Source: Escherichia phage vB_EcoS-95. Taken from it: a stretch of DNA of 50,910 nucleotides. The stretch is taken from the sequence record NC_048132.1, one strand, 5' to 3'. This document shows positions 321-46,415 of the stretch, piece after piece. Positions within the stretch are counted from its first letter, which is position 1, and each line of letters begins with the position of its first letter. The notes beneath the pieces were generated by a model, which made no database searches, was not told where the DNA came from, and saw only the letters and a list, made by a program, of their open reading frames with translations. Made by a program: the position numbers and the translations under genes.

Positions 321-339
321 TAGCACTTTTTGCTAATGA
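321..339 (+). promoter_or_regulatory. Variant copy of the 19-bp box (TAGCACTTTTTGCTAATGAC); its reverse complement abuts the RBS of the minus ORF at 302
   Basis: Sequence match to the multi-copy box; TGCTAT on the minus strand lies just upstream of AGGAGG. Confidence 0.4.
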
Positions 340-365
340 CAATGCAGATAATAGCATTTTCAGGT

Positions 366-393
366 GCAAAAAAAAACCCCGCATAAGCGGGGC
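366..393 (-). terminator. Rho-independent terminator downstream of the primase gene
   Basis: Hairpin CCCCGC-ATAA-GCGGGG (377-392) followed on the minus strand by a T9 run. Confidence 0.6.
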
Positions 394-408
394 AATACTA
401 GCGGAGTT

Positions 409-1338
409 TTATAGCAGTGATTCAGGCTTGTAGATTTTTCTTTCTACGCCCTGTTTAAAATTATCGTTAACAGGCATCATTATGTCAAGACCTCTTTCCT
501 CTGCTGCGATTATCACATCACGATCATCTTTCCGGCAGACTACGCGCATTCTTCTTTCTCCTTTATATCTATGCGCAACCATTTCAAGATTTGAAGGAGT
601 AAAGCAGGCCCACACCTCTTGACCAGTTGACAAATGAACATGCTGGGAATCAACCCAATCAAGGCACAAATAGATCGTCTTATCTGTGCTACCTGTTTTA
701 ACAACAGACCCGCGCGTGTAGTCGCGAGCTAAAAACCAATCCTTTCCATCCTCATCAATGAAAAGCACGTTACACATTTCATCATCCAGCCCGTCATCAT
801 GCACCAGGTGACAAGGTAGCGCGTGAATGTATCGACCATCCTTGACGCCGCAATCATAATGACAACCTTCCGGCGGATATATCCCCTCATAAACGCTTAA
901 AGGTGTGCGATCGAATTTTAATGTTTTTGCCATCACTTTTTCGCAGCATTCATGACTTGCCTGTTTCCCGAACGAGTAACCAGAAGAACGCGAAGCGCGT
1001 TTGTTTGCTCTGATCCTGTAATCCTGCGGCACTTTTCCGAGGAAGCGGCCCAAAATGTTGATGGCCTCGCTGTAAGGTTCGCCAGTTAATTTCATTAACC
1101 AACCGATCCCCGTGTCGTTACCGCACACGTTGCAGATCGCGCCGCCGTCTCCCTCTTCATTTAGCTTATCAGTCCATCTAAAACGATCCTTACCGCCGCA
1201 GTGTGGGCAAGGCTGATGCTTTTTGTTGAAAACATCGCTATGCAGTCCGCAAATGCTTTGTAGTGCTTCACGCCATAACCCCTTCATATATGGCAAAACA
1301 TCTTCTTTCTGATAGGTCATAAAGTTTTCAGTATTCAT
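409..1338 (-). CDS. DNA primase (zinc-ribbon type)
   Basis: CPHCGGKDRFRW...CNVCG zinc-ribbon typical of phage/plasmid primases; acidic DxD-rich C-terminal half; start moved to MNTENF (RBS GAGGT) from track start 1365. Confidence 0.5.
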   Translation of the reverse strand: MNTENFMTYQKEDVLPYMKGLWREALQSICGLHSDVFNKKHQPCPHCGGKDRFRWTDKLNEEGDGGAICNVCGNDTGIGWLMKLTGEPYSEAINILGRFLGKVPQDYRIRANKRASRSSGYSFGKQASHECCEKVMAKTLKFDRTPLSVYEGIYPPEGCHYDCGVKDGRYIHALPCHLVHDDGLDDEMCNVLFIDEDGKDWFLARDYTRGSVVKTGSTDKTIYLCLDWVDSQHVHLSTGQEVWACFTPSNLEMVAHRYKGERRMRVVCRKDDRDVIIAAEERGLDIMMPVNDNFKQGVERKIYKPESLL

Positions 1339-1392
1339 AGCAACCTCAATAAAAAAGCCCAGCAAATATTATCATTTCGCTGGGCCTTATCA

Positions 1393-1869
1393 TTAGCTAT
1401 TCGTGCTGTTATCACCTTTGTAGAATCTTCCGCCTGGTTCGTAGTCTGAATTTTTGACTACGCGCAACATTTCGTATTTGTCGCAACGGGTAGTAAGAGG
1501 CTTGCCGTTAGAATCAAACCGCAGATCTGGACGACAAAACGAGGCGCGGTATCCTTTGCATCCATTATATTTGTAGTCGTTATGCACCTTTTGTGCTCCA
1601 GCGGCTGAAATCATACCACGCTTTCGCCATTGGTTAACTACTTGCTGAGATACGCGTAGACGTCGAGCCATAGCAGGGACACCGCCGTAATACTCGATCA
1701 GAATGTCAAGGCGAGATTTCAGGCTTGCTTTTACCTCATCTCGCAGGATAAGAAATCCGGTTCGGTGTTTTCGTGGCTTTTTGTCTTTACCTCGTCGCGT
1801 TCCGTTGTTACCGTTAATAGTGCGCTTGTCGATCTCACCCGTAGACACTGCAATTCGTGCATCTTTCAT
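1393..1869 (-). CDS. HTH DNA-binding protein (Cro/YdaS-like motif), candidate regulator
   Basis: GGVPAMARRLRVSQQVVNQWRKRGMIS resembles Cro/CI-type helix-turn-helix; basic N-terminus; divergent from the helicase gene. Confidence 0.4.
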   Translation of the reverse strand: MKDARIAVSTGEIDKRTINGNNGTRRGKDKKPRKHRTGFLILRDEVKASLKSRLDILIEYYGGVPAMARRLRVSQQVVNQWRKRGMISAAGAQKVHNDYKYNGCKGYRASFCRPDLRFDSNGKPLTTRCDKYEMLRVVKNSDYEPGGRFYKGDNSTNS

Positions 1870-1881
1870 CTAGTCACCTCA

Positions 1882-1924
1882 TAGCATTTTTTGTTAAAAC
1901 AGTTTATTGTAATGAGTCTATTAT
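1882..1924 (+). promoter_or_regulatory. Box promoter (TAGCATTTTTTGTTAAAAC + -10-like TATTAT at 1919-1924) upstream of helicase
   Basis: Box and -10-like hexamer at the family-typical spacing; the reverse complement of the box abuts the RBS of the divergent HTH gene. Confidence 0.5.
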
Positions 1925-1956: not shown

Positions 1957-3954
1957 ATGATTCCAAATATCGAAAAACAAATATCAGCGTTAGGCGAGGC
2001 AGTAATAAAAAGCATCCAAGAGCGATTCACGGTTGGCAATATAGTGCCTTATCCTTATCAGTGCGTTGCGTATGCCGAGATCGCAAAGCGCATGAAAAAC
2101 TATGAGCATCCTTTCTTTGTTAAGGCTTCTGTGTCGGCTGGCAAAACATTGATGTTTGCGATGGTTGCTGCGCAATGCCGCAAAATGGGATTGAAAATGA
2201 TGGTCCTTGCTCGCCAAGCTGAAATTGTTGATCAGGATTCGGAAGAGATCAGCAATCTTGGCGTGCCAAACTCAATCTATTGCGCCGGACTGAAAACAAA
2301 AAGCGCATACTTTCCGATCGTAGTCGGTTCTGAGGGCACTGTAGTAAACGGATTGTTTAAGTCGTTAGGTGATTATGTTCCGCACGTTATCGGTATTGAT
2401 GAATGTCACCAGGTGGATTGGGAGGATCTCGCCGACGCGATAGAAAATAATGAATCTTACCAGCAGATGACCACTAAGAAGGATTTGCCTGTACTGATTG
2501 GAGAAGAACAGCAATTTGATTCCAATGGCGATCCAGTGTTCGGAACAGGGCGCACACAGTACACCGTAATAATCATGGAAATGATGCGCAGGTGTCGCGA
2601 GGCATACGGGCACGAATTGCGAATATTCGGTATGACTGGATCTGAATTTCGCGGCGTGGTTCCAATACTGGTTGAAGATAAGAACAAAAAGGGATTCTGG
2701 CGTGAGCAGGTGACTAACATAGACACAAACTACTTAATCAAATTCGGTTCTGTAGTACCAACAAATTTCGGCGACGTAGGCGACCTGGGGTATGACCTTT
2801 CAGAGTTCGAAGCCAGTAGCGAGGATGGCGTTTCAGACTTTGACGCTAAAACATTGCGCAAGATGGAAGAAAAGATCCATCAAGACGCAACAATGACACA
2901 GAAAATCATGGCTAAAGTCCATGAGATATGCAAAGACAGGAACGGAGTTTTAGTTACATGCGCAGGAGAAAGACACTGCAAGGAGGCCGCCGCCGCACTG
3001 CCGCCAGGCGTTGAATACAGGATCATAACTGGCAAAACTGGAGATAATCAGCGTAAAGAGTGGCTGAGGGAGGCATACGAGGGGAAAGTAAAATACATCT
3101 TCCAGGTACAGGCGCTTACCACTGGCGTTAACGTTCCGTTTTGGGATACTTCGGTAATACTGAGAAAGATAGGATCTCTAACATTGCTCATCCAGCTTTT
3201 GGGGCGCGGTATGCGACTGCTTAAGCAATGGCACATTGAGCAGGGATTCAAGAAAAAAGATCATCTTGTATTGGATTTTGCAGGTACTATGGATGAGTTA
3301 GGTGATTTGTATTTCGATCCAATCCTTGAGCAAGCGCAATTCCAAAAGAGATTTACAAACGGGAAAGAGCCTAAGACTTGTCCGATATGTGGAACGCTAA
3401 ACAGCTTTTACGCTCGCCGATGTATGCACGTAGACGATAGCGGGAAGAGATGCGAGCATTTTTGGACTTACAGAATTTGCGAGGACCAGGTAGATCCGAG
3501 AACGAAAAAGATAATCAAGCGCGGTTGCGGAACAAAAAACGACGTAGTTGCGAGAGTATGCCGTTGTTGCGATATTTCTCTTGTCGATCCTAACGAGAAG
3601 TTAAGCGGCAAGCACTACACCAAAAACGATTGGTGCAACGTTAAATCTTTCCGCGTTGATATGACGAAAAACCAAAAAGGAATTGTTTTTTGCTATGAGC
3701 TTGAGGCCAACGGCGACACGTTCAAGGCATACGAAAGATTTTTCCCTGAGTCAGAAAGCAACATTTGCCGGACGATATGGAGAAAAATAGCATTGCAGCA
3801 CATACCGGATCGTAAGATTGCTGGTATGGTGGCGAGCTATAGAAATGCGCGTAAAATAATGTCATACGCTCATCACATCATGCCGCCTGTACGCGTAACG
3901 CATCGCAAAAACGGCAAAGGTGAGGATAACATTGCAAAACGGGAGTTTGTTTAA
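1957..3954 (+). CDS. SF2 DExH-box helicase with C-terminal Cys-rich zinc-ribbon region
   Basis: Walker A SAGKTLMFAM, DECH motif (GIDECHQV), Cys clusters CPICG...C..C near the C-terminus; 665 aa. Confidence 0.7.
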   Translation: MIPNIEKQISALGEAVIKSIQERFTVGNIVPYPYQCVAYAEIAKRMKNYEHPFFVKASVSAGKTLMFAMVAAQCRKMGLKMMVLARQAEIVDQDSEEISNLGVPNSIYCAGLKTKSAYFPIVVGSEGTVVNGLFKSLGDYVPHVIGIDECHQVDWEDLADAIENNESYQQMTTKKDLPVLIGEEQQFDSNGDPVFGTGRTQYTVIIMEMMRRCREAYGHELRIFGMTGSEFRGVVPILVEDKNKKGFWREQVTNIDTNYLIKFGSVVPTNFGDVGDLGYDLSEFEASSEDGVSDFDAKTLRKMEEKIHQDATMTQKIMAKVHEICKDRNGVLVTCAGERHCKEAAAALPPGVEYRIITGKTGDNQRKEWLREAYEGKVKYIFQVQALTTGVNVPFWDTSVILRKIGSLTLLIQLLGRGMRLLKQWHIEQGFKKKDHLVLDFAGTMDELGDLYFDPILEQAQFQKRFTNGKEPKTCPICGTLNSFYARRCMHVDDSGKRCEHFWTYRICEDQVDPRTKKIIKRGCGTKNDVVARVCRCCDISLVDPNEKLSGKHYTKNDWCNVKSFRVDMTKNQKGIVFCYELEANGDTFKAYERFFPESESNICRTIWRKIALQHIPDRKIAGMVASYRNARKIMSYAHHIMPPVRVTHRKNGKGEDNIAKREFV

Positions 3955-4373
3955 TGGCTATAACTGATAAAGGAGATTATCTTGAGTTTTACGAAAGAGA
4001 TCCAACCGACACGAGAAAGGAAGTTAATCACCAGATAGATAGCTTTCAGTGGTTGACTTATGCTCATCCTTATTTGCTAGCGTGGCATACGGTAAACGAG
4101 AATGAGAAGTCGAAAGTAACGGCGATGATTGATCAGCAGTCCGGCTTGGTTAAGGGGGTAAGCGATTTCATCATCCTGATTGGTTCAAACGGAAAATACC
4201 CCTTTGCAGCGATTGAGATCAAACGAGTTAATAAATCAGGCAAGGGGAAAGCATCACCAGTCAGCGATGAACAAAAGGCTTTTTTGCGTCGCGTTCGCAG
4301 TTTAGGAGGATTCGCTGCGGTCGCCTACGGATTTAATCAGTTTAAGTTAGCTATTGAATACATGCTTAAATAG
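3954..4373 (+). CDS. VRR-NUC domain nuclease
   Basis: GVSDFIILIG...AIEIKRVNKSGKG...QKAFL pattern typical of VRR-NUC (PD-(D/E)XK) nucleases; start overlaps helicase stop. Confidence 0.55.
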   Translation: MAITDKGDYLEFYERDPTDTRKEVNHQIDSFQWLTYAHPYLLAWHTVNENEKSKVTAMIDQQSGLVKGVSDFIILIGSNGKYPFAAIEIKRVNKSGKGKASPVSDEQKAFLRRVRSLGGFAAVAYGFNQFKLAIEYMLK

Positions 4374-4413
4374 CACTTTTTGTTAAAACTGGCGCGATGG
4401 ATTGCGCCATAAT
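4371..4413 (+). promoter_or_regulatory. Box promoter (box 4371-4389 overlapping stop TAG; hairpin GGCGCGATGGATTGCGCC; -10-like CATAAT 4408-4413)
   Basis: Exact 19-mer TAGCACTTTTTGTTAAAAC; fixed 18-bp gap to -10-like hexamer. Confidence 0.6.
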
Positions 4414-5178: not shown

Positions 5179-5182
5179 CACG

Positions 5183-5440
5183 ATGAAAAAAGAGAGAAGC
5201 GTTTATTTAAATGAAACTGGCGAATGGTTGTTATTTCGCGCTATGGTGTGCGATGCACTTGATAAAAACCCTAACGTGAAAAAGATGATTGATTGCGATC
5301 CGTGGGAATTTTCAAGCGCATTAGATATGAGCTTTGAGGAGACAAGAAAACTACCGCTTGAAAAATGGCACGAACAAATAAGAAATGACATGCAAGAGTT
5401 TGTCGATTCGTGGAATTTTCAGAACGGAATGATCCACTAA
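5183..5440 (+). CDS. Hypothetical protein
   Basis: 85-aa ORF with RBS; stop TAA directly followed by the box. Confidence 0.4.
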   Translation: MKKERSVYLNETGEWLLFRAMVCDALDKNPNVKKMIDCDPWEFSSALDMSFEETRKLPLEKWHEQIRNDMQEFVDSWNFQNGMIH

Positions 5441-5483
5441 TAGCATTTTTTGTTAAAACGCCCGGCATTTTGTCGGGCATAAT
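5441..5483 (+). promoter_or_regulatory. Box promoter (TAGCATTTTTTGTTAAAAC, hairpin GCCCGGCATTTTGTCGGGC, CATAAT 5478-5483, leader CATAGAAACGAA)
   Basis: Box + hairpin + -10-like hexamer at family spacing. Confidence 0.6.
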
Positions 5484-8655: not shown

Positions 8656-8698
8656 AATATACCCGACACTAGGCCGGGCGTTTTAACAAAAAATGCTA
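8656..8698 (-). promoter_or_regulatory. Box promoter (minus strand; -10-like TATATT; leader CATCGAAACGAA)
   Basis: Reverse complement of box at 8680-8698, hairpin GCCCGGCCTAGTGTCGGG, hexamer at family spacing. Confidence 0.55.
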
Positions 8699-8816
8699 TT
8701 CCATACGCTTTACCGTAACCAGTAATACACCATCACCATTGCATAAAACATGTTCAGTGGTGCTAAAAGCGCGCATATCTGAATAAAGTAGCGTAAGTAA
8801 AGCATGAATAAAATCC

Positions 8817-10817: not shown

Positions 10818-10860
10818 ATTTTAACGGCCCAATACTACCCCGTTTTGTCAAAAAGTGCTA
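10818..10860 (-). promoter_or_regulatory. Box promoter variant (TAGCACTTTTTGACAAAAC) upstream of SF3 helicase
   Basis: Box overlaps stop TAG of the upstream gene; hairpin GGGCCGTTAAAATTTACGGCCC; -10-like TAAAAT. Confidence 0.5.
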
Positions 10861-11079
10861 TTTGATCCGCTCTATTGCAACCAGAAGTCGATCAGGCTGG
10901 CGGTCGCTGTAGCATTCTCCTGTAATCCCATCCTTAAACGCAAAGTAAAGCGCCTTATGATATGAAAAACCAATCAGCCAACCTACCGCCGTTTTTTTGA
11001 TGGGCCTGACTATATCGCCAGGCTTGAAAGTCTTTGTGGTAGAATGCGTTACTTTGTAACGGTTTTCACTGTTTATCAC
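10858..11079 (-). CDS. Hypothetical protein
   Basis: 73-aa ORF. Confidence 0.35.
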   Translation of the reverse strand: MINSENRYKVTHSTTKTFKPGDIVRPIKKTAVGWLIGFSYHKALYFAFKDGITGECYSDRQPDRLLVAIERIK

Positions 11080-11491: not shown

Positions 11492-11534
11492 ATTATGCCA
11501 GGTTTTTACACCTGGCTTTTAACAAAAAGTGCTA
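11492..11534 (-). promoter_or_regulatory. Box promoter (minus; hairpin GCCAGGTGTAAAAACCTGGC; CATAAT; leader CACATCGAACAAAC)
   Basis: Box overlaps stop TAG of the methyltransferase-like gene. Confidence 0.55.
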
Positions 11535-12242
11535 TTTTGAGTTTGACTCAAAGACGGCGCGAGCAAATCCGCGCGGAGTGAGTGAGCGGATCATCTTTGT
11601 GCGCGATGACTTACCGCCAGTTTTGGCCCAGCCTGGATTATCTTTGTCTTCCTCTTTCGGCAGGATTAAAGCGCGCGGAGGAATAACAAAGCCGTTGCCA
11701 GTCCAGAGGCACGTTTTCTTAAAATAGCGATCCCGCGCCGGAATAATATCAGGGAAGTCGGGATGTTTATCATCTTCCGGCAGATAGCCAGCGTAATCGC
11801 ACGGATGGAACGTATAATCAGGCTTTCGCCATAACGTTGACAACTTGCCAACCGGATTTTCGATCATGTAAGGAACACCGAAATAATCAGCTATATCAGC
11901 CGCGATTCTGCAAGTGTCGGCGGCCTCATCCTGGAACGATGGATTCTCAAGGCGTTTTTTGGCCCAATGGCGAGATCCGCTATTTGCAAGGTCGGTGCAC
12001 GGCGGAAATGCCATAATAAAGTCAGGAATGCCCCATTCCTCCCAGCGCGCGCGGTGGTAAAATCTTTCATCAATCCAGACGTTAACGTATTCGATATTCT
12101 CATGCTGTATGCGCACTGACTGGTAATCACCGTGATCGCCACCGTCAGCATTAAAGCAAATGCACTTATAGCCATTATCAGCCCAATCTTTAACGGCTTT
12201 ACCAGATCCATCAAATAGTGAGAATATTAAACCTTTATACAT
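11532..12242 (-). CDS. Compact DNA C5-cytosine methyltransferase-like protein (atypical PCT catalytic motif)
   Basis: Motif I LFDGSG, motif IV FPPCTDLANSGS (PCT instead of PCQ), motif VI ENPVG, C-terminal RSLTPRGFARAVF (motif X-like); about 236 aa with no obvious target-recognition domain. Confidence 0.45.
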   Translation of the reverse strand: MYKGLIFSLFDGSGKAVKDWADNGYKCICFNADGGDHGDYQSVRIQHENIEYVNVWIDERFYHRARWEEWGIPDFIMAFPPCTDLANSGSRHWAKKRLENPSFQDEAADTCRIAADIADYFGVPYMIENPVGKLSTLWRKPDYTFHPCDYAGYLPEDDKHPDFPDIIPARDRYFKKTCLWTGNGFVIPPRALILPKEEDKDNPGWAKTGGKSSRTKMIRSLTPRGFARAVFESNSK

Positions 12243-13690: not shown

Positions 13691-13733
13691 AATATACCAT
13701 TCAGGCGCACATCGTTTTTAACAAAAAGTGCTA
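13691..13733 (-). promoter_or_regulatory. Box promoter (minus; -10-like TATATT; leader CATCGACAACAA)
   Basis: Box overlaps stop TAG of upstream gene; fixed spacing to hexamer. Confidence 0.55.
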
Positions 13734-14021
13734 TTCAACAACTTTTCCAGTTAAAGAGATAAGTTGCCTTGTAATCTTGTGGCGGCGATACTTACGCGCA
13801 ACAACAGGAAGGCTTTCACCGCTTTGATGACCAAAACAGATCGGCAATTCACCTTCAAGGGAGCGGAAGCCACCAAATTCAAGATCCCGCACTGGCTTAG
13901 CGCGCCAGGCTTCAATAAATCCGCGCTCGTCACGAGTGATATAGCGGTATATGTTCGGGAGGGGCAATTGTATCCCCTCAAAATCCACGGTATCGGTATA
14001 GCTATAAAACTTAGAACTCAT
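13731..14021 (-). CDS. Hypothetical protein
   Basis: Trimmed to MSSKFYSY (RBS GGAG) from track 13731-14072. Confidence 0.4.
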   Translation of the reverse strand: MSSKFYSYTDTVDFEGIQLPLPNIYRYITRDERGFIEAWRAKPVRDLEFGGFRSLEGELPICFGHQSGESLPVVARKYRRHKITRQLISLTGKVVE

Positions 14022-14196: not shown

Positions 14197-14239
14197 AATG
14201 TACAGGAATGCGAGGATTGAGTTTTAACAAAAAGTGCCA
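14197..14239 (-). promoter_or_regulatory. Box promoter (minus; variant TGGCAC; -10-like TACATT; leader CATCGACAACGAA inside a 12-bp inverted repeat that includes the RBS)
   Basis: ATCCTCGCATTC ... GAATGCGAGGAT inverted repeat spans hexamer, leader and RBS. Confidence 0.55.
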
Positions 14240-14240
14240 T

Positions 14241-15500: not shown

Positions 15501-15543
15501 AATGTACCCGATCAGACGGCCTGAGTTTTAACAAAAAGTGCTA
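15501..15543 (-). promoter_or_regulatory. Box promoter (minus; -10-like TACATT; leader CATCGAAACGAA)
   Basis: Exact reverse-complement box at 15525-15543. Confidence 0.55.
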
Positions 15544-15544
15544 T

Positions 15545-16099: not shown

Positions 16100-16127
16100 T
16101 TGACACGCACCAAATAGCTTTTATAAT
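16100..16127 (+). promoter_or_regulatory. Near-consensus sigma70 promoter (TTGACA-16 bp-TATAAT) for rightward early transcription
   Basis: TTGACA at 16100-16105 and TATAAT at 16122-16127. Confidence 0.6.
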
Positions 16128-16623: not shown

Positions 16624-16883
16624 TGAAAAAGGCATTAATCGGCGTTTTGGCGGCAATGACACTCCTGACCGGATGCGAAAAGGCATCAGAATCAACGGTT
16701 GTCGTAGGCGTTGAGTCAGATTTCAAAGTCGGCCGCCTGTTCACTGTTGACGGATGCACAGCATACAGATTCTATGATAACGGTCGCGCGATCTATTACA
16801 CCAGTTGCAAAGGCGCAACGGATAGCACATACAACAGCGGAAAGAACGTAATGCACCAGCAAGTCACAACAGATATTAAATAG
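16623..16883 (+). CDS. Putative lipoprotein
   Basis: Signal peptide with lipobox LLTGC; 86 aa. Confidence 0.5.
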   Translation: MKKALIGVLAAMTLLTGCEKASESTVVVGVESDFKVGRLFTVDGCTAYRFYDNGRAIYYTSCKGATDSTYNSGKNVMHQQVTTDIK

Positions 16884-16923
16884 CACTTTTTGTTAAAACG
16901 CCAGGCGCAAAGCCTGGCATAAT
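16881..16923 (+). promoter_or_regulatory. Box promoter (hairpin GCCAGGCGCAAAGCCTGGC; CATAAT; leader CATCGAAACGAG)
   Basis: Exact box overlapping stop TAG. Confidence 0.6.
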
Positions 16924-17342: not shown

Positions 17343-17343
17343 A

Positions 17344-17386
17344 TAGCACTTTTTGTTAAAACTCAAAAACGATAACCAGGCATAAT
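17344..17386 (+). promoter_or_regulatory. Box promoter (CATAAT at 17381-17386)
   Basis: Exact box one base after stop TAA. Confidence 0.6.
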
Positions 17387-18335: not shown

Positions 18336-18561
18336 GTTTGCTCACTGCGGCGCACGTCGCCGCATGGATCGGATTGTTTGCCTACCTGTTTAGCTTTTAT
18401 TGAGGTGAGAGATGACTACCTGGATTTTGCTGATTCTTATGATTGATGGCGGCGTTGACCATATCGAAATGAATAGCCAGCAATCTTGCATTGAGGCACG
18501 AGAGCAGATCAAGAACAACAACAGGTTTTATGTGTACACTCACACGCTATGTATTAAGAAA

Positions 18562-18603
18562 TAGCACTTTTTGTTAAAACTCAAATTTGGGGCCAGGTAT
18601 AAT
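18562..18603 (+). promoter_or_regulatory. Box promoter (hairpin GGGGCCAGG..GGCCC with TATAAT)
   Basis: Exact box overlapping stop of a small upstream ORF. Confidence 0.55.
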
Positions 18604-19316: not shown

Positions 19317-20027
19317 ATGAAAAAATACACTTTCGAACTGTGGGGCAAGAAGTACGAATTAATCACCAGCAAGCCGATTGTTATCGTTGACCTGGACGGC
19401 ACACTATCGGACGGATCGCATCGTTTGCACTTGCTGCCAACTGAAAACTTGCACCTTACGGAATCTTGGCGCGAGTTTAACAGGTCCGCCGCCGGAGATT
19501 CACCTATTAAAAGCACGATCGCGGTTATTAACGGTTTGTGGGTGTCTGGATTTGCCATCGTCATCTTGACCGGACGCAGCGACGAGGTTCGCTATGAAAC
19601 CTGCAAATGGTTGAATGAGAACGGCGTGAAGTTTGACGAAATCATCATGCGCCGCCAGGAGGACAACCGAAAGGATACGGTTATTAAAGAAGAAGCCTTG
19701 CGCGCTATTGGCCTGGACAACATTGTTTGCGCCTTTGACGATTCGCCGAACGTGGTTAAGCACTTCCGCAGCTTGGGGATCACAACCTATCAGGTCACGG
19801 AATACGACAAGCCACACGCTCACATACAATCTCACGGCGTGGAATCAATCAAGATAACGAAGCGCGCCCGATTCGTTGGCAGCAAAGATAGCCTTGTCAA
19901 TGCCAGCTTTACCAGAGGAATAGCATATGACGTTGTTTCTTATCATGACAAGAGTTTTATAGTTCATGATGATTCTGGATGCGCATGGTCATTCAATCAT
20001 AGTGACGGCGATTTTGTTAATGCGTAA
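19317..20027 (+). CDS. HAD-superfamily phosphatase (nucleotidase or polynucleotide 3'-phosphatase-like)
   Basis: HAD motif I VIVDLDGTLSDG; later FDDSP motif; start at MKKYTFELW. Confidence 0.5.
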   Translation: MKKYTFELWGKKYELITSKPIVIVDLDGTLSDGSHRLHLLPTENLHLTESWREFNRSAAGDSPIKSTIAVINGLWVSGFAIVILTGRSDEVRYETCKWLNENGVKFDEIIMRRQEDNRKDTVIKEEALRAIGLDNIVCAFDDSPNVVKHFRSLGITTYQVTEYDKPHAHIQSHGVESIKITKRARFVGSKDSLVNASFTRGIAYDVVSYHDKSFIVHDDSGCAWSFNHSDGDFVNA

Positions 20028-20070
20028 TAGCACTTTTTGTTAAAACATCTCAACGGGCTTGCGGTATAGT
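20028..20070 (+). promoter_or_regulatory. Box promoter (hairpin GGGCTTGCGGTATAGTAAGCCC; -10-like TATAGT; leader CATCAACAACAAACGAGGA)
   Basis: Exact box directly after stop TAA. Confidence 0.6.
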
Positions 20071-20942: not shown

Positions 20943-21533
20943 ATGAAACGAGACATTATTATCCTTAATGGGCCGCCTGGCTGTGGAAAGGACACTATTG
21001 CAGCTTACCTAACGGGCCATCGTTACCCAGCGGTTAAGGCGTCATTCAAACAGCCGATGTTCGATATTGCGTTTTCCATGCTGGGCGTGTACCGATACGA
21101 TGAATTTATGGACCTGTACAACGACCGAGAACAAAAAGAAAAGCCTCAAGTTATTTTGGGCGGCAAGTCACCTCGACAATTCATGATCTGGATTAGCGAG
21201 GATGTAATGAAGCCAGTTTTTGGAGATCACTATTTCGGGCGTCGAATGGTTGAAGAGATTCACGAGATGTACCGAGATTTGGCGGTTGTGATCAGTGATG
21301 GCGGATTCCCCGAAGAAATCAAGCCGCTGGTTAAGGCAGGGCATGAAGTGCATATTTGCAGATTGCATCGCGACGGCTTCACGTTTGCTGGCGATTCGAG
21401 AGACTACATTGACCTGAGCGGTTATCACTATCGAATCCATCACTATGATTTCCACTTGCAGGACGGCAAGCCAGATCTGGCTGTAAACGAGATCGTCAAT
21501 ACGGTCAAATGGAAGCACACACAGATTAAATAG
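20943..21533 (+). CDS. P-loop kinase, deoxynucleoside monophosphate kinase-like
   Basis: N-terminal Walker A ILNGPPGCGKDT resembling phage dNMP kinases; 196 aa. Confidence 0.45.
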   Translation: MKRDIIILNGPPGCGKDTIAAYLTGHRYPAVKASFKQPMFDIAFSMLGVYRYDEFMDLYNDREQKEKPQVILGGKSPRQFMIWISEDVMKPVFGDHYFGRRMVEEIHEMYRDLAVVISDGGFPEEIKPLVKAGHEVHICRLHRDGFTFAGDSRDYIDLSGYHYRIHHYDFHLQDGKPDLAVNEIVNTVKWKHTQIK

Positions 21534-21573
21534 CACGAATTGCTAAACGCGGGGTTATCGGCCCCGCTATAAT
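21531..21573 (+). promoter_or_regulatory. Box promoter variant (TAGCACGAATTGCTAAAC; hairpin CGGGGTTATCGGCCCCG; TATAAT)
   Basis: Box overlaps stop TAG; leader CACATCAACAATCAAGAGG. Confidence 0.5.
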
Positions 21574-22533: not shown

Positions 22534-22824
22534 ATGGCAAACAAAACTTACCGCAAACTACTGGTTAACGCTTTTGAAAACATCGCGCAGTCTAACAAGT
22601 GGAACGACTCTAAACACTCGCCAGTCACAATGAAGCGCGTCGGATTCAAAAATGCTCGTTCATGGGCGCGAGCTTTCGCAGCTTGCTATATGCCGGATGG
22701 TGGACTAGGAGCGATGAACGATTTTTTGATCAACATGATAGAGGAAGCTGCGCGAGAGGATCGACCGCTGACACAGCGAGATTTTGACGACTTCGCGCGC
22801 GATGAGCTTTACTATCTGAGCTAA
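22534..22824 (+). CDS. Hypothetical protein
   Basis: 96-aa ORF; stop followed by box. Confidence 0.4.
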   Translation: MANKTYRKLLVNAFENIAQSNKWNDSKHSPVTMKRVGFKNARSWARAFAACYMPDGGLGAMNDFLINMIEEAAREDRPLTQRDFDDFARDELYYLS

Positions 22825-22867
22825 TAGCACTTTTTGTTAAAACTTCCGCAAGGGCATTTGATAAAGT
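22825..22867 (+). promoter_or_regulatory. Box promoter (hairpin GGGCATTTGATAAAGTGCCC)
   Basis: Exact box immediately after stop TAA. Confidence 0.55.
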
Positions 22868-25477: not shown

Positions 25478-27045
25478 TGATCATATGGGAAGATTTGACG
25501 GCGGCGCAAAAGCGAGCCATTAAAGAAATCAGTGAGCATTCATTCGAAAAGATGATCAGAATCTGGTTCCAATTATTGCAGGGGCAAAAATTCCAGAGCA
25601 ACTGGCATTTTAGCTTATTGTGCAGTGAGGTAGAGAAGATCATCAATGGAGAGTCGCAGAATGTTATTTTCAACATTACGCCAGGTAGCGGTAAGACTGA
25701 GATTTTCTCAATCCACATGTCACCCTACGCGTCATTGAAAAGCCGGAAGGTGAGAAATCTTAACCTTTCGTTTAGTGATGGACTTGTCCAGCAAAACAGC
25801 AACCGGATAAAGGAGATTATTGGTTCTCCTGAGTGGCAAGAGCTATGGCCTGGAAAACTGGCAAAGGCGAGCGCTAAAGATCTGATAGTCACCGAAGGCG
25901 GCAAGGTTAAATTGCAGGTTAACTCACGTTCTATTGGCGGCCAGGTAACAGGTTTGCGTGGCGGCTATATGGATGATGGTTTTACTGGTATGCTGGTTCT
26001 TGACGATCCAGACAAGCCGGATGATATGCTTTCTAAGGTCAAGCGTGAGGCTATCCACATGCGGCTAAAAAACACAGTGCGATCGCGTCGAATGAAAGAC
26101 ACCACGCCGATTGTTATGGTGCAACAGCGACTACACGTTAATGATTCCACCTGGTTTATGCTTAATGGCGGGATGGGTGGTATTGAGTTTAAAGTTGTGA
26201 GCATTCCGGCGCTGGTTACGAAAGAATACCGCGAAACACTTCCTGATTGGTTGAAGCCTGAATTTGATCGTGATGTTCTGTCAAGTAAGCCAGTGATGAT
26301 AGATGGCGTTGCTCATTATTCATTTTGGCCTGCGAAGGAAAGCGCGGAGGAGTTGCTTGCATTGCGCAATGCAGATCCTTACACGTTCGCCAGCCAATAC
26401 CAACAGCAACCAATCGCGCTTGGCGGCAACGTGTTTAAAACAGAGTGGTTCCAGTATTACGGCAGCGGCGAAAAATGCGCACTACCAAAACCGGATCGCT
26501 TTGAATACACATTTATTACTGGAGATACCGCGCAGAAGGCCGGAGAGCTTAACGACTATTCAGTTTTTTGTTATTGGGGGATGTATAAGAATCGCGTTTA
26601 CTTCATTGATGGCATTCGCGGAAAGTGGGAAGCGCCGGATCTTGAATTAAATTTTATTGCCTTCGTTAACCAGTGCTGGAAGCGCAATAAGGAGTGTGGC
26701 AGCTTGCGACGTATCCACATTGAGGATAAGGCCAGCGGAACTGGTTTGATTCAGGGGGCCAAAAAGAAGATCCCGATTGATATAAATCCCGTTCAGCGAA
26801 GCAACGACAAGGTAACGCGAGCAATGGACGCCGCGCCAGTGATGAGGGCCGGACGTGTGGCACTGCCAGAAAATCACCCCATGCTGCCTGAGATACTGGC
26901 AGAGGTTGCAGCATTCACTTTTGATGATTCTCATCCCCATGATGATATTGTCGATAATATAGTTGATGCTGTTAACGTAGAAATGAATTTGGCAGATGAT
27001 CCGGTAGCAAGGATGAAAAAGCTGGCAGGTCTACGCAATAAATAG
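25477..27045 (+). CDS. Terminase large subunit
   Basis: Walker A-like ITPGSGKTE, Walker B MLVLDDPD; 522 aa between TerS and portal. Confidence 0.75.
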   Translation: MIIWEDLTAAQKRAIKEISEHSFEKMIRIWFQLLQGQKFQSNWHFSLLCSEVEKIINGESQNVIFNITPGSGKTEIFSIHMSPYASLKSRKVRNLNLSFSDGLVQQNSNRIKEIIGSPEWQELWPGKLAKASAKDLIVTEGGKVKLQVNSRSIGGQVTGLRGGYMDDGFTGMLVLDDPDKPDDMLSKVKREAIHMRLKNTVRSRRMKDTTPIVMVQQRLHVNDSTWFMLNGGMGGIEFKVVSIPALVTKEYRETLPDWLKPEFDRDVLSSKPVMIDGVAHYSFWPAKESAEELLALRNADPYTFASQYQQQPIALGGNVFKTEWFQYYGSGEKCALPKPDRFEYTFITGDTAQKAGELNDYSVFCYWGMYKNRVYFIDGIRGKWEAPDLELNFIAFVNQCWKRNKECGSLRRIHIEDKASGTGLIQGAKKKIPIDINPVQRSNDKVTRAMDAAPVMRAGRVALPENHPMLPEILAEVAAFTFDDSHPHDDIVDNIVDAVNVEMNLADDPVARMKKLAGLRNK

Positions 27046-27060
27046 CACTAATTGCTAAAA
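27043..27060 (+). promoter_or_regulatory. Box variant (TAGCACTAATTGCTAAAA) overlapping TerL stop
   Basis: Sequence match to box; followed by TATATAAT and a terminator hairpin rather than the usual spacer hairpin. Confidence 0.4.
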
Positions 27061-27074
27061 AGTTATATAATCAA

Positions 27075-31852: not shown

Positions 31853-31869
31853 CATAAAAACGCTTTGAC

Positions 31870-31892
31870 GCTTTAACAAAAAGTGCTATCAT
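31870..31892 (+). promoter_or_regulatory. Reverse-orientation box giving an extended -10 (TGCTATCAT) with upstream TTGACG, ahead of the major capsid gene
   Basis: TTGACG-16 bp-TATCAT with TG at -15/-14; sequence is the reverse complement of the early box. Confidence 0.45.
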
Positions 31893-31933
31893 CTAGGCCG
31901 TTACATTTAACGGCCTTTTATGGAGGAAACAAA

Positions 31934-35555: not shown

Positions 35556-35560
35556 AACAA

Positions 35561-35581
35561 GGGGCGTTGCGCCCCTTTTTT
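35561..35581 (+). terminator. Rho-independent terminator after the major tail gene
   Basis: GGGGC-GTTGC-GCCCC followed by TTTTTT. Confidence 0.6.
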
Positions 35582-35620
35582 CATTCCTGTAAAATCAATC
35601 TATCAAATAAATCAATTCCA

Positions 35621-35639
35621 CTTTTAACAAAAAGTGCTA
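35621..35639 (+). promoter_or_regulatory. Reverse-orientation box giving TGCTATAAG extended -10-like element directly abutting the RBS of the tail chaperone gene
   Basis: Reverse complement of the box; AAGGAG RBS starts 1 nt after the box. Confidence 0.45.
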
Positions 35640-35654
35640 TAAGGAGATCTTGAG

Positions 35655-45152: not shown

Positions 45153-45181
45153 AAAAAGGGGGCATAGCCCCCTTTAATTTT
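45151..45181. terminator. Bidirectional rho-independent terminator between convergent J and the minus-strand operon
   Basis: GGGGG-CATAG-CCCCC flanked by A7 upstream and TTTAATTTT downstream. Confidence 0.65.
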
Positions 45182-45794
45182 AATCATAGTGCGATGAATT
45201 TATAACCAAAACAGATGAAGCCGTGTAAATACCAACAGGACCAGAAGTTTGCGCAACCTGCCTAGATAAAGAATATACCCCGTTGCCATACGCGGCAGCT
45301 TGAGACTCAAATATCATGAATCCACCTAAAGACGGATTACGCACAGAGTTTAAAGCTGTTAGTGACGGCATGATGGCGCAAGGGTATCCCAAGTTAACGT
45401 CAAAAGTGATCCCGCTTACAGATACAAGTTTTGCATCTAAAGGCTTCATCTTTCCATGATAAACCATCTCACCATTAGCATTATAAAAAGCTATTCCGTG
45501 ACTACCAGGAGGAGTAACCATATTGCTAAAAGCATAAACAAATACCTCACCTTGATTGTCGGACTTTTCTATCTTTATTGCGTGCTTCCCACCATTATTA
45601 AATTGAGTAAATGCTATGTATGATTTTGATGTTAACCTTACAAAAAAGAAGCACGGTCTATTTATTGGTATAGAAGTATTAAAAACGGTTCCTGTTTTTG
45701 CTGATATTTTACCTTTATCTATAAGGTTAACAGGAGTGAAATCTGGACTTAACCACAATGATCCGTCTGGTTTTTTTATGCTCATCCCGTACAT
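45180..45794 (-). CDS. Hypothetical protein (possible receptor-binding or exclusion-related)
   Basis: 204 aa; start overlaps upstream stop; last gene of the Cor-like operon. Confidence 0.35.
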   Translation of the reverse strand: MYGMSIKKPDGSLWLSPDFTPVNLIDKGKISAKTGTVFNTSIPINRPCFFFVRLTSKSYIAFTQFNNGGKHAIKIEKSDNQGEVFVYAFSNMVTPPGSHGIAFYNANGEMVYHGKMKPLDAKLVSVSGITFDVNLGYPCAIMPSLTALNSVRNPSLGGFMIFESQAAAYGNGVYSLSRQVAQTSGPVGIYTASSVLVINSSHYD

Positions 45795-45796
45795 TA

Positions 45797-46075
45797 TTAC
45801 CCCCAAAAAGTATATATATATCTTGAGTCAGATCCAGAAAGTCCGCTCCATGTAACGGTATCACCACTTACACCTAAACTTGGAGCGCCAGGATCTCCTC
45901 CGCGCCACGAATTCATTCCAACATATATTGCTTTCAACGACTTACCTGGCGGCCTGTTTGAGTAGGTCTTACTGCCAGATGATTGAGTAAATTTATCCAA
46001 GAAAAAAACTGGAGTTAAAAGGCCAGTAACATTTCTACCTTGCTCATCATATATTGCATACCCATATTCAGCCAT
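45797..46075 (-). CDS. Hypothetical protein
   Basis: 92 aa; RBS GAGGTG; Gly/Ser-rich C-terminus. Confidence 0.35.
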   Translation of the reverse strand: MAEYGYAIYDEQGRNVTGLLTPVFFLDKFTQSSGSKTYSNRPPGKSLKAIYVGMNSWRGGDPGAPSLGVSGDTVTWSGLSGSDSRYIYTFWG

Positions 46076-46343
46076 TTTTGCACCTCAAATCAATGAATTT
46101 TCTTTCATCTTGCCAACGGTTGATAAATTTAACTTCTTTATTGTCAACGCTCAACCTGTATTGCTTTTGGCTGAATCTGTTTTCGCGGACCGCATTAATT
46201 TTAACTTCATGGAATCCGTTAACAGGGAATGTTTTAACGTTAAATTTTGCCGTGCAATCGATCTCCTTGAAGTTGCCAGTAGGCGAAGAAGAACATCCGG
46301 TCAGAGCGGCTACGGTGGCGATAACTGCGATTAATTTTTTCAT
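46068..46343 (-). CDS. Cor-like superinfection-exclusion lipoprotein candidate
   Basis: Signal peptide with lipobox LTGC (MKKLIAVIATVAALTGCSS); small size; location next to tail genes as for cor in T1/phi80-type phages. Confidence 0.4.
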   Translation of the reverse strand: MKKLIAVIATVAALTGCSSSPTGNFKEIDCTAKFNVKTFPVNGFHEVKINAVRENRFSQKQYRLSVDNKEVKFINRWQDERKFIDLRCKNG

Positions 46344-46374
46344 CTTCAATACCCCTTAGTTGTTGTTGGCTGTA

Positions 46375-46415
46375 ACTATACACGATCCGGCAAGCCGAGT
46401 TTAGCAAAAAGTGCT
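46375..46415 (-). promoter_or_regulatory. Box promoter variant (TAGCACTTTTTGCTAAAC) for the Cor-like operon
   Basis: Reverse complement of box at 46398-46415; -10-like TATAGT downstream. Confidence 0.5.

Follow-up and report, generated by a model that had tools for sequence, protein, structure and literature searches.

Intergenic repeats of a T1-like Escherichia phage match the marbox and may form activator-dependent class II sigma-70 promoters

Analysing the 50,910-nt sequence of Escherichia phage vB_EcoS-95 (NC_048132.1, hereafter the window), a Warwickvirus of the Drexlerviridae, we characterized 20 copies of a conserved box, (A)TAGCACTTTTTGTTAAAAC, most of which are placed like the upstream half of a promoter. 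In our estimation, with a probability of about 55%, they are activator-dependent class II sigma-70 promoters carried in promoter/stem-loop cassettes, and the host proteins MarA, SoxS or Rob, rather than a MotA-like phage factor, are the likely activator.

A position-weight scan recovered all the sites of the original prediction, which had announced about 20 such boxes, with scores of 22–38 bits, the highest score in 20 shuffles being 13.4; the sites stood, the position given as 46415 being corrected to 46416. An exact/near-exact search returned 17 copies with at most three mismatches, against 0.04 expected by shuffling. The boxes lie at 321, 1882, 4371, 5441, 16881, 17344, 18562, 20028, 21531, 22825 and 27043 on the plus strand, and at 8698, 10860, 11534, 13733, 14239, 15543, 31888, 35639 and 46416 on the minus strand (Table 1). 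As anticipated, most boxes overlap the upstream stop codon or lie directly against it, the TAG of the boxes at 4370 and 16880 being the stop codons of ORFs 3954-4373 and 16623-16883, respectively. Sixteen boxes are co-oriented with the downstream gene, and the remaining four (321+, 27043+, 31888- and 35639-) are not simple forward promoters.

Table 1. Candidate box promoters and associated elements of the window
Element	Coordinates	Strand	Description
Reversed box without -10, leader of minus-strand tail-fibre gene	320..339	+	between the tail-fibre extended -10 promoter (TGCTATTAT, 356-348) and the SD
Box promoter, helicase gene (start 1957)	1881..1924	+	marbox ATAGCATTTTTTGTTAAAAC 1881-1900, 18-bp gap, -10 TATTAT 1919-1924
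Box promoter, Dam methylase gene (start 4453)	4370..4413	+	box, spacer stem-loop, -10 CATAAT
Box promoter, gene start 5516	5440..5483	+	spacer stem-loop 5460-5478 (also terminator-like score), -10 CATAAT
Box promoter, gene start 8619	8656..8699	-	spacer stem-loop 8679-8661, -10 TATATT
Box promoter, DUF3987 helicase-like gene (start 10789)	10818..10861	-	variant ATAGCACTTTTTGACAAAAC; -10 TAAAAT in stem-loop loop
Box promoter, gene start 11462	11492..11535	-	spacer stem-loop; TGG before -10 CATAAT (extended -10)
Box promoter, gene start 13659	13691..13734	-	TGG before -10 TATATT
Box promoter, gene start 14163	14197..14240	-	box variant ATGGCAC..., -10 TACATT
First box promoter of leftward early block, gene start 15466	15501..15544	-	-10 TACATT
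Box-less perfect consensus sigma-70 promoter (not a family member)	16100..16127	+	TTGACA-16-TATAAT, upstream of DUF7174 gene
Box promoter, gene 16956-17141	16880..16923	+	spacer stem-loop, -10 CATAAT
Box promoter, gene start 17442	17343..17386	+	-10 CATAAT, without stem-loop
Box promoter, gene start 18634	18561..18603	+	17-bp gap, -10 TATAAT within stem-loop
Box promoter, gene start 20102	20027..20070	+	-10 TATAGT within stem-loop
Box promoter, gene start 21604	21530..21573	+	GAA subtype ATAGCACGAATTGCTAAACG, spacer stem-loop, -10 TATAAT
Box promoter, gene start 22900	22824..22867	+	-10 TAAAGT (TGA extended -10) within stem-loop
Box, TAA subtype	27042..27061	+	overlaps terminase-large stop codon; then canonical terminator 27073-27094, no convincing -10
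Late-sense sigma-70 promoter, major capsid gene	31865..31892	+	TTGACG, 16 bp, TGC-TATCAT
Reversed box with own -10	35597..35640	-	-10 TAGATT, 18-bp gap; points at bidirectional terminator 35559-35577
Promoter of leftward Cor-side operon (start 46343)	46375..46417	-	variant GTAGCACTTTTTGCTAAACT, 17-bp gap, -10 TATAGT

All 16 co-oriented boxes carry a -10-like hexamer (CATAAT, TATAAT, TATATT, TACATT, TATAGT, TAAAGT, TAAAAT or TATTAT) 18 bp past the box end, or 17 bp in two. Counted from the first box base, the hexamer begins after 37 nt in 14 copies, as originally predicted, and after 36 nt in two (18562 and 46416). Of the 112 boxes with an acceptable hexamer across six genomes, 92 have a gap of 18 bp, and the gap sequence is unrelated between copies. 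Such a fixed distance over free intervening sequence, maintained in about six genera, points to an activator contacting RNA polymerase. The conserved box occupies the place expected of a -35, in line with its proposed promoter role, and its TTG(T/C/A)(T/C)A lies 22 bp from the -10, indeed too far for a sigma-70 -35. The window has few canonical sigma-70 promoters, with no enrichment over shuffles, and only three were reported for phage TLS (PMC11447400), so that the boxes must supply most early initiation.

The original prediction also suggested searching related T1-like genomes for the motif, and across six genomes (the window, T1, Rtp, Stevie, Webervirus and one Pantoea phage) 121 copies were collected, spanning about five or six subfamilies/genera. 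The boxes are members of the known 21-22-bp intergenic direct repeat of T1-like phages, already described in T1 (Roberts et al. 2004, via PMC4319613) and reported as VWATAGCAYKWWTTGYTAAAAV in Stevie (Shaw 2015, PMC4319613) and as aaATAGCACnnnTTGnTAAAA in TLS (2024, PMC11447400). The published repeat and the window boxes have the same sequence, intergenic site and co-orientation with transcription, without structural difference; both comprise TTT, GAA and AAA/TAA subtypes, and their distances to the start codon are alike (~76 nt in TLS, 72-99 nt in the window). Stoperator, enhancer site and UP element have been proposed as functions (PMC4319613, PMC11447400), and the TLS paper posed the question as open (PMC11447400). 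Relative to this literature, the fixed 18-bp distance to the -10 and the apparent identity with the marbox are new.

The published marbox pattern gcannwwntgnnaaa (PMC12052159), of a site that comprises GCAC (A site) and CAAA (B site; PMC9638938), gave 19 matches in the 50.9 kb against 1.5 expected. Every match is a box, and 19 of the 20 boxes match all specified positions. A second search pattern, AYnGCACnnWnnRYYAAAYn, which we take to be the classical consensus, likewise produced 19 matches against 1.3 expected with one mismatch allowed; the box at 21530 (ATAGCACGAATTGCTAAACG) agrees with it at 14/14 positions. In the six-genome set, all ten specified positions of the 15-mer are matched by 92 of the 121 boxes, and at least 12 of the 14 classical positions by 112. 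The only variable box positions (8, 9, 10, 14, 19 and 20) are degenerate in the marbox (n, n, W, Y, Y and n), invariance reaches 98% or more at G4, C5, A6, G13, A16 and A17, and A3, T11 and T12, each 'n' in the marbox, are ~95% conserved in the phage boxes. This conservation is asymmetric (G4 100% vs 49% for its would-be dyad partner C14, and an invariant one-sided TAAAAC), which argues against a symmetric dimer site.

The layout also corresponds to that of a host promoter. At micF of E. coli (NC_000913), the marbox ACAGCACTGAATGTCAAAAC is followed by an 18-bp gap, a -10 TAGAAT and a +1 seven nt later; the phage box ATAGCACTTTTTGTTAAAAC is identical to it at 15 of 20 bases and shares AAAAC at the -35 position as well as the gap length. 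Promoters of class II carry a forward marbox overlapping the -35 (PMC12052159), and micF, centred at -41.5, is one of them (PMC9638938). Promoters of the micF type and phage elements alike combine a forward, 20-bp asymmetric site with GCAC and YAAA, a poor -35 (AAAAC-n) beneath it, 18 bp before the -10 and a centre close to -41. Furthermore, fumC has a forward 14/14 marbox directly behind the fumA terminator, and the marRAB marbox ATGCCACGTTTTGCTAAATC shares 14 contiguous nt with Webervirus boxes. Unlike host marboxes, the phage copies sit in a virulent genome, number ~16-20 per genome, are far more uniform, are joined to stem-loops and lie right against the upstream stop codon, and their binding by MarA, SoxS or Rob is a prediction.

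The marbox is the asymmetric site of the monomeric two-HTH activators MarA, SoxS and Rob (RamA in Klebsiella); Rob is constitutively abundant, and MarA and SoxS rise under stress. Under host activation, each co-oriented box would be the upstream half of a sigma-70 promoter without usable -35 hexamer: the 20-bp A-TAGCAC-nnn-TTGYTAAAAC would be a forward marbox, with GCAC as recognition element 1 and YTAAA as element 2, in the class II layout of micF, 18 bp before the -10 and centred near -40.5. A host protein of the MarA family is predicted to bind it, contact sigma-70 region 4 and the alpha C-terminal domain, and recruit RNA polymerase, with the extended -10 (frequent G or TG at -14/-15) probably assisting. 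Transcription would start ~7 nt past the hexamer, at a conserved ATCGAAACGAA leader, 21-32 nt from the start codon in most copies and 48 nt at 17344. The six phages encode no MarA-like protein detectable by tblastn or by a MarA/SoxS/Rob HMM over all six-frame ORFs (best E-values 0.36 and 0.11). As counterpoints, unstressed cells contain little MarA or SoxS, the bulk of Rob is kept inactive, and T1-like phages nevertheless grow vigorously in ordinary broth.

The original prediction had instead proposed a phage factor, by analogy with T4 MotA. MotA/AsiA middle promoters and box promoters do share a -10, the lack of a functional -35 and a fixed-distance upstream box implying a recruited factor. 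However, the MotA box is TGCTT-type, centred at -30 and 11-13 bp from the -10, whereas the window box has its centre near -40.5 and its end 18 bp from the -10, and differs in sequence, matching instead the MarA/SoxS/Rob site as at micF; nor did we find evidence of sigma appropriation in the box phages. A phage-encoded activator, as originally proposed, with the box promoters as a middle class, seems to us unlikely, though worth weighing. Its candidates would be the Cro-like ORF 1393-1869, the DUF7174 protein or the 86-aa ORF 16623-16883 behind the 16100 promoter, or an unrecognised small protein. The perfect box-less promoter before the first rightward early gene (DUF7174, 16159-16623), followed by box promoters, is how a cascade with a phage-made activator would be expected to look. 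In addition, the gene of ORF 1393-1869 is as family-wide as the box (about 800 Drexlerviridae records) and itself has a box upstream, the copy at 1881-1900 being also reversed relative to it, just upstream of its SD. The box contains a partial dyad, TAGCA-N5-TGCTA (C14 variant), centred at -42, with which a dimeric regulator would be compatible, and its uniformity beyond that of host marboxes could reflect a more specific reader, or concerted evolution via recombination between copies. The Drexlerviridae phages Vc1 (12 boxes; recorded host Vibrio cholerae) and Motto (17 boxes; recorded host Pseudomonas aeruginosa) also retain the same boxes and spacing; if these hosts are genuine and without a MarA/SoxS/Rob equivalent, a phage-borne reader would be needed.

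Against such a reader, the asymmetry of the box is at odds with the symmetric operators read by Cro-type HTH proteins. ORF 1393-1869 encodes a single HTH of this type, whose recognition helix differs between homologues (at most positions between Vc1 and the window) while the box consensus is constant. No DNA-binding signature was detected in the DUF7174 protein or in ORF 16623-16883, and ORF 6022-7137 gave only a sub-threshold HTH match; none of the regulators first put forward (ORFs 1393-1869, 6022-7137 and 16159-16623) fits. Moreover, the first leftward early gene itself lies behind a box (15543-), and the marbox match together with the micF spacing would have to be coincidence.

A GC-rich hairpin had been predicted to follow the co-oriented boxes. 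Hairpins are frequent, but not universal: they are stable in ~10 of the 16 co-oriented window copies, and ~three quarters of all elements carry one, within the 18-bp gap or straddling the -10. The cassettes sit between small early genes, right behind the upstream stop codon, and the stem-loop position suggests composite attenuator/promoter cassettes of the type of the PeSLs of T4-type phages (PMC2839356, PMC4122927). Both run from stop codon through an A/T-rich stretch and promoter to SD and ATG, have the stem-loop over the -10 or between it and the '-35', lie next to small accessory early genes, and are shared between unrelated phages, as for RB16 frd.1 and Webervirus gp63. By contrast, PeSL promoters are described with consensus -35 and -10 hexamers (PMC2839356, PMC4122927), whereas in the window the box replaces the -35.

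This resemblance bears on two further readings. The holoenzyme alone might suffice: the elements would be PeSL-type early promoters, strong and constitutive, that work through an extended -10, with the box as a UP-like or displaced -35 element and its uniformity kept mainly through recombination between cassettes. TGn or G at -14 occurs in many copies, PeSLs have the same anatomy and their promoters are active in uninfected E. coli (PMC2839356), UP elements were suggested by the TLS authors (PMC11447400), RB16-type phages combine the same -10 and leader with other upstream sequences, and cassettes have been exchanged between RB16 and Webervirus. We hold this to be quite improbable: UP elements are A/T tracts, whereas G4, C5, C7 and G13 are most invariant here, the 22 bp from TTGYTA to the -10 exceed the 15-19 bp usable by sigma-70, and recombination explains neither why marbox-specified positions are fixed while degenerate ones vary nor why the gap is held at 18 bp with free sequence. 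Alternatively, the conserved unit may work in the RNA or as a terminator, with box and hairpin ending or processing the upstream transcript and the apparent -10 being only a U-rich tail. Several hairpins are annotated as rho-independent terminators in the T1 record, two window hairpins score terminator-like and a PeSL stem-loop terminates in vivo (PMC2839356). This is hardly credible as the role of the box, since the ~one quarter of elements without stable hairpin retain box, gap and hexamer, the hexamers obey a TAnnnT rule rather than forming T-runs, and in many cases the hexamer lies inside the hairpin rather than after it. The cassette plausibly terminates transcription as an additional function.

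The reversed copies raise the question of repression. One forms the spacer of the capsid promoter (31870-31889, minus strand), lacks its own -10 and recurs in four genera; another lies in the tail-fibre leader, and that at 35597..35640 faces away from the tape-measure-chaperone gene, at a position conserved in T1. Repression from a marbox placed within a promoter spacer is known, as at pbpG (PMC12052159), and under host activation the same protein would repress at the capsid and tail-fibre copies. One could go further and regard all boxes as stoperator-like operators, as discussed in the Stevie and TLS papers, whose bound protein shuts early transcription or blocks elongation at intergenic sites. 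L5 stoperators of mycobacteriophage are likewise short, asymmetric, intergenic repeats oriented with transcription (PMC4319613, PMC11447400), and binding to these two reversed copies should repress. Yet L5 stoperators serve the repressor of a temperate phage and stand at no fixed distance from a -10, in contrast to the exact 18-bp spacing of the boxes (92/112). A repressor site needs overlap rather than such a distance, and if the box is taken away nothing equivalent to a -35 is left, so that recruitment must come from something. T1-like phages are virulent and have no prophage state to silence. Repression as the only role is thus very doubtful.

The marbox match in sequence and spacing suggests that most early genes run through a host activator, and, if such a factor is used, the box promoters could be early promoters rather than a middle-gene regulon.

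All 20 copies of the box in the window fit the 21-22-bp repeat published for T1-like phages (aaATAGCACnnnTTGnTAAAA / VWATAGCAYKWWTTGYTAAAAV); the element of the original prediction is a rediscovery of this known repeat, to which the window contributes a Warwickvirus member. In Citrobacter phage Stevie, 16 copies of VWATAGCAYKWWTTGYTAAAAV were described as asymmetric, intergenic and co-oriented, with a role given as unknown (Shaw et al. 2015, PMC4319613), and the Stevie sequence record labels box copies as repeat_region. A count of 20 copies is given for T1 (Roberts et al. 2004, as cited in PMC4319613). In phage TLS, 18 intergenic copies of aaATAGCACnnnTTGnTAAAA lie upstream of start codons, at a distance of about 76 nt; intergenic promoters of sigma-70-like type numbered only three, and the function of the repeat, for which the authors proposed stoperators, enhancer sites or UP elements, is counted among the open questions for T1-like phages (German et al. 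2024, PMC11447400).

The 19-mer TAGCACTTTTTGTTAAAAC is present in 17 copies at up to 3 mismatches in the window, against 0.04 expected, and a weight-matrix scan recovered 20/20 sites at 22-38 bits, the maximum over 20 shuffled genomes being 13.4 bits, so that the 20-box family proposed from the sequence alone stands in full. Sixteen of these 20 boxes are co-oriented with the next gene, their first base lying 72-99 nt 5' of the start codon; the remaining four are atypical, and T1 likewise carries atypical copies. The fixed-distance -10 hexamers that had been claimed were also recovered, a -10-like hexamer beginning 37 nt after the first box base in the co-oriented copies (36 nt in two of them). 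Behind it come, in order, a CA-rich stretch that is conserved (CATCGAAACGAA), the Shine-Dalgarno sequence and then the start codon; the stop codon of the preceding gene usually coincides with or just precedes the box start. The window is ~97% identical to Escherichia phages tonijn, FritzSarasin and tonnikala (Warwickvirus, Tempevirinae, Drexlerviridae), and a search of related T1-like genomes, as originally suggested, revealed the box with equal spacing in T1, Rtp, Stevie, Klebsiella Webervirus GML-KpCol1 and Pantoea phage AAS23. Using a 79-nt element as query, about 700 phage records were matched, essentially all of them Drexlerviridae.

Conservation statistics were obtained from 121 family members gathered from these six genomes, with the 20-mer numbered from the A before TAGCAC. 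Positions G4 and C5 are invariant (121/121), A6, G13, A16 and A17 are conserved in at least 98% of boxes and C7 in 89%, while positions 8-10 vary (TTT, GAA, TAA, AAA, GTT), position 14 is split evenly between C and T and positions 19-20 are loose, resulting in a strongly asymmetric conservation. Counted from the end of the 20-mer, and with a hexamer accepted when its second base is A and its sixth T, the gap to the -10 measures 18 bp in 92 of 112 boxes that have such a hexamer; TGn or a G at -14 stands before many of the hexamers. The gap sequences are unrelated from copy to copy; the length of the gap is therefore selected and its sequence is not.

Several identities for the box were considered and rejected. 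A displaced -35 was discarded because TTGYTA lies 22 bp from the -10 in every genome, where it is unusable by sigma-70, and an UP element because the invariant positions are G and C. The box bears a superficial likeness to the TGGCAC and TTGC of sigma-54 promoters but lacks their GG-N10-GC arrangement (TGGCAC-N5-TTGC), since T(A/G)GCAC-N3-TTG(C/T) is two bp shorter than required and a sigma-70-type -10 comes after it. In T4 middle promoters the MotA box has its centre at -30 and lies 11-13 bp upstream of the -10; the phage box, centred near -40.5 and ending 18 bp from the -10, disagrees with it in position as well as in sequence, and the proposed analogy with T4 MotA was consequently abandoned. 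L5-type stoperators belong to temperate phage and T1-like phages are virulent, and this identity also fails on the exact 18-bp spacing between box and -10. The reverse complement of the box contains TTTAACAA, which recalls rrn boxA, but the TGCTC part is absent and the match is antisense in 16/20 copies. Finally, a by-eye comparison of the box with the IHF and Fis consensus sequences revealed no convincing fit.

The classical marbox consensus is AYnGCACnnWnnRYYAAAYn. The phage consensus, ATAGCAC-nnW-TTG-Y-TAAAAC, fits it, and its variable positions across the 121 boxes are exactly the degenerate positions of the marbox. Allowing one mismatch to the classical 20-mer, 19 matches were found across the window against 1.3 expected. 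The mar/sox/rob site has also been published as gcannwwntgnnaaa (PMC12052159), and the marbox has been described as built from GCAC as its A site and CAAA as its B site (PMC9638938). At zero mismatches, the published 15-mer gave 19 matches across the window, all of them boxes, against 1.5 expected; 19/20 window boxes agree at 10/10 specified marbox positions. Over the six genomes, 92/121 boxes match 10/10 of the 15-mer and 112/121 match at least 12/14 of the classical consensus. The marbox of marRAB (ATGCCACGTTTTGCTAAATC) has 14 contiguous bases in common with Webervirus boxes.

This resemblance extends to promoter geometry. Class II promoters of the mar/sox/rob regulon carry a forward marbox overlapping the -35 (PMC12052159), and in micF, a class II promoter, the marbox is centred at -41.5 (PMC9638938). 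The phage box is likewise forward, with its final five bases at the -35 position and its centre at -40.5 if 6-7 nt are assumed between the -10 and +1. In the E. coli K-12 sequence, micF reads as the marbox ACAGCACTGAATGTCAAAAC, 18 bp, the -10 TAGAAT, 7 nt and +1, and the phage element as ATAGCACTTTTTGTTAAAAC, 18 bp and the -10; the two share orientation and the 18-bp gap, are identical at 15/20 bases and have AAAAC in place of a -35. At fumC, a forward 14/14 marbox directly follows the fumA terminator, an arrangement resembling the stop codon, stem-loop and box layout of the phages. The geometric references from E. coli are micF, which is exact, and fumC, which is approximate, as no marbox above the thresholds used was found in the sodA and inaA upstream regions. 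By consensus, orientation and spacing, the box qualifies as a class II marbox, for which binding by MarA, SoxS or Rob is predicted. Literature searches with the exact box sequence returned nothing relevant, and no report of a marbox identity or micF-like geometry for the repeat appeared in the literature reached, where the search combining marbox and phage was poorly constrained, an earlier publication being possible.

Candidate readers were sought in the phages themselves. Neither tblastn with MarA, SoxS and Rob nor an HMM of the DNA-binding domain detected a MarA-like protein among 3,364 six-frame ORFs of the six phages, the best score being no better than E = 0.1. Pfam and/or PHROGs scans took in nine window ORFs, including the three candidate regulators originally named, none of which fits the box well. 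Two of them, the DUF7174 and metallophosphoesterase-type ORFs, lack a convincing DNA-binding signature, the N-terminal helix-turn-helix of the latter being weak (Sigma70_r4_2, E = 0.0017, below threshold). The third is the one conserved phage "transcriptional regulator" (PHROG 2856), present in about 800 Drexlerviridae records, with sub-threshold hits to Cro and YdaS and weak profile hits to Cro proteins. Its AlphaFold model (pLDDT 85.7) is a single Cro-type helix-turn-helix whose closest structural matches are Xfaso-1 Cro and N15 Cro, with no AraC- or MarA-like protein among the matches. Residues 14-37 of this regulator form a basic N-terminal motif, DKRTINGNNGTRRGKDKKPRK, that is almost invariant and has low model confidence, and its C-terminal segment GYRASFCRPDLRFDSNGKP...RC is conserved and contains Cys.

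Cro proteins bind symmetric operators as dimers, whereas box conservation is one-sided, and the predicted recognition helix differs at most positions between homologues although the box consensus is common to their phages; a symmetric operator for the Cro-like regulator was rejected on both grounds. A phage-encoded factor fits the consensus promoter without a box at 16100, as expected of a cascade with a phage-made activator. It would also fit the retention of boxes with normal spacing in Vibrio phage Vc1 (12 boxes) and Pseudomonas phage Motto (17 boxes), the reader being phage-borne if these recorded hosts are real and devoid of a MarA-type factor. Overall, we regard a phage-encoded reader as unlikely. 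T1-like phages of non-enteric hosts had been expected to be devoid of the box. Vc1 and Motto are T1-like, with 45% G+C and non-enteric hosts on record, and they also keep the Cro-like regulator; this implies either an unusual or wrongly recorded host, or a box reader that the phage carries with it. Because no phage MarA homologue was found and the phage candidates fit poorly, the simplest reader would be a MarA-family protein of the host, which sequence comparison leads us to favour slightly. Cells contain little MarA or SoxS unless stressed, and Rob is mostly inactive, yet T1-like phages thrive in broth, which weakens the host-factor reading. In addition, phage boxes are more uniform than host marboxes, with A3, T11 and T12 ~95% conserved though unspecified in the marbox. 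Recognition of the element by RNA polymerase alone appears quite improbable.

Most elements also carry a stem-loop. Folding of the 52-nt segment from the box end to 20 nt past the hexamer (n = 105 elements) gave a mean free energy of -12.1 kcal/mol and a mean z of -2.5 relative to shuffles, with dG at or below -8 kcal/mol in 76% of the elements and no stem-loop in about a quarter. The stems sit within the 18-bp gap or enclose the hexamer; the T1 record annotates several of them as terminators, and two of those in the window score as terminator-like. In the PeSL layout of T4-type phages, a stop codon is followed by an A/T-rich stretch, a promoter with a stem-loop between or over its hexamers, a Shine-Dalgarno sequence and ATG, and both promoter and terminator activities were demonstrated in uninfected E. 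coli (PMC2839356). The phage cassette resembles PeSL in running from the upstream gene's stop codon to the Shine-Dalgarno sequence and ATG of the next small early gene, and in having, in most elements, a stable stem-loop between the -35 and -10 positions or overlapping the -10. Unlike PeSL, it has a -10 but no -35 hexamer at 16-18 bp, where the sequence reads TAAAAC or AAAACn.

Two correctly spaced T1-type boxes are present in RB16-like T4-type myoviruses. One of them in RB16 is followed by frd.1, a gene 66% identical to a gene of Webervirus KpCol1 that also lies behind a box, and promoter-plus-gene cassettes thus move between unrelated phages. The predicted transcript start, ACNC-ATCGAAACGAA, about 7 nt after the -10, is conserved across Drexlerviridae, and early intergenic regions of RB16 without a box carry this leader too, which points to a separate function for it, for example in promoter escape, mRNA stability or translation.

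Canonical sigma-70 matches show no enrichment over shuffles anywhere in the window, and the best intergenic ones are few (see table). Since such promoters are scarce, the boxes would supply the majority of initiation sites in the two early blocks and the Cor-side operon. The perfect promoter in front of the DUF7174 gene is a likely immediate-early promoter. The helicase box promoter and the leftward promoter of the regulator/primase operon overlap face to face in their -10 regions and would be competitors for RNA polymerase. Between the divergent early blocks lie about 540 bp of non-coding DNA; this stretch contains repeats, and TAATCG repeats occupy the equivalent place in T1. It may represent an origin, a pac region or an array of binding sites for a regulator.

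Promoters, boxes and other features of the window and of the compared phages (window coordinates unless a phage is named)
Feature	Position	Strand	Remark
Sigma-70 promoter TTGACA-16-TATAAT, 12/12	16100-16127	+	No box; before the first rightward early gene, DUF7174
Sigma-70 promoter TTTAAA-17-TATAAT	1948-1920	leftward	Regulator/primase operon
Further best intergenic sigma-70 matches	Capsid promoter, 24113, 46787
-10 (TATTAT) of the helicase box promoter	1919-1924
Face-to-face promoter overlap	1900-1956
Cro-like regulator	1393-1869	-	PHROG 2856
Metallophosphoesterase-type ORF	6022-7137	+
DUF7174 ORF	16159-16623
Non-coding stretch	15560-16100		Between the divergent early blocks
TAATCA/AATCA repeats	15575-15660		In the non-coding stretch
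Very A/T-rich stretch	15800-15880		In the non-coding stretch
Degenerate box-like CAGTGCTTTTTGTTGG	15897-15912		In the non-coding stretch
Conserved transcript start (predicted)	16930-16941		Example
Capsid promoter with reversed box as spacer	31865-31892
Strong hairpin AGGCCGTTA-CATT-TAACGGCCT	31893-31925	+	Then TTTT and Shine-Dalgarno
Box with retained -10	35639	-	Points at bidirectional terminator
Late region	24877-49153
Late intrinsic terminators	24877, 27073, 30794, 32917, 35559, 36288, 39367, 41502, 45155		Examples
T1-type boxes in RB16 (L003)	1508, 2047
Leader without box in RB16 (L003)	40-140, 2700-2780
Homologue of frd.1 in KpCol1 (L007)	42593-42911

Reversed copies of the box are associated with late genes. 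A late-sense sigma-70 promoter (TTGnnn-16 bp-TATnnT) lies upstream of the capsid gene in 6/6 genomes, with an extended -10 (TGn) in all except Rtp. Its 16-bp spacer is a reversed box in the window, T1, Stevie and AAS23; this box is eroded in Webervirus and absent in Rtp. In the window, T1 and Rtp, the promoter of the tail-fibre gene is of the extended -10 type and the leader behind it contains a reversed box, and neither the capsid nor the tail-fibre reversed boxes have a -10 of their own. A marbox within a promoter spacer is a documented arrangement for repression, as at pbpG (PMC12052159). Another atypical copy, which has kept its -10, is directed towards a bidirectional terminator, and T1 shows the same. 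Directly behind the capsid promoter, the predicted transcript opens with a strong hairpin ahead of the Shine-Dalgarno sequence, in the window and T1 alike; this hairpin may be either a stabiliser of the 5' end or a promoter-proximal terminator that requires antitermination. Many strong intrinsic terminators also lie between genes of the late region, and the T1 record annotates 17 or more.

Taken together, the family-wide, oriented site of marbox sequence, its 18-bp gap, the lack of a -35 hexamer, the frequent stem-loops and the lack of a phage MarA homologue led us to propose, with a probability of about 0.4, that Drexlerviridae drive most of their early promoters by host MarA, SoxS or Rob, through ~16-20 near-optimal class II marboxes per genome together with reversed sites in capsid and tail-fibre promoters. 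By analogy with the class II complexes solved for SoxS (PMC9638938), a host monomer of the MarA/SoxS/Rob type would bind the box and recruit sigma-70 holoenzyme via region 4 and the alpha-CTD. Transcripts would start at the conserved ATCGAAACGAA, the stem-loops would attenuate read-through from upstream units, and the box-binding protein would also repress the capsid and tail-fibre promoters. More speculatively, decay or titration of the factor during infection might constitute the early-to-late switch.

The marbox identity offers a testable answer to an acknowledged question about the repeat of a classic T phage, and, should the host-factor reading fail, the exact mimicry of a host site would still have to be explained. 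If the model holds, it would have a bearing on phage therapy with Webervirus and other T1-like phages and on the control of T1 contamination, and engineering would gain promoter cassettes that are compact and tunable through the host. The mar/sox/rob regulon is induced by salicylate, bile and redox drugs, and the model would thus also bear on phage-antibiotic interactions through these inducers. MarA and SoxS are short-lived, and could act as a timer that keeps early genes active and late genes silent until transcription by the host collapses or the factor is titrated by the sites. Drexlerviridae would then represent a clear case of virulent phages wiring their early programme to a host antibiotic- and stress-response regulator, in which a host-supplied activator would couple phage development to the stress or bile status of the host.
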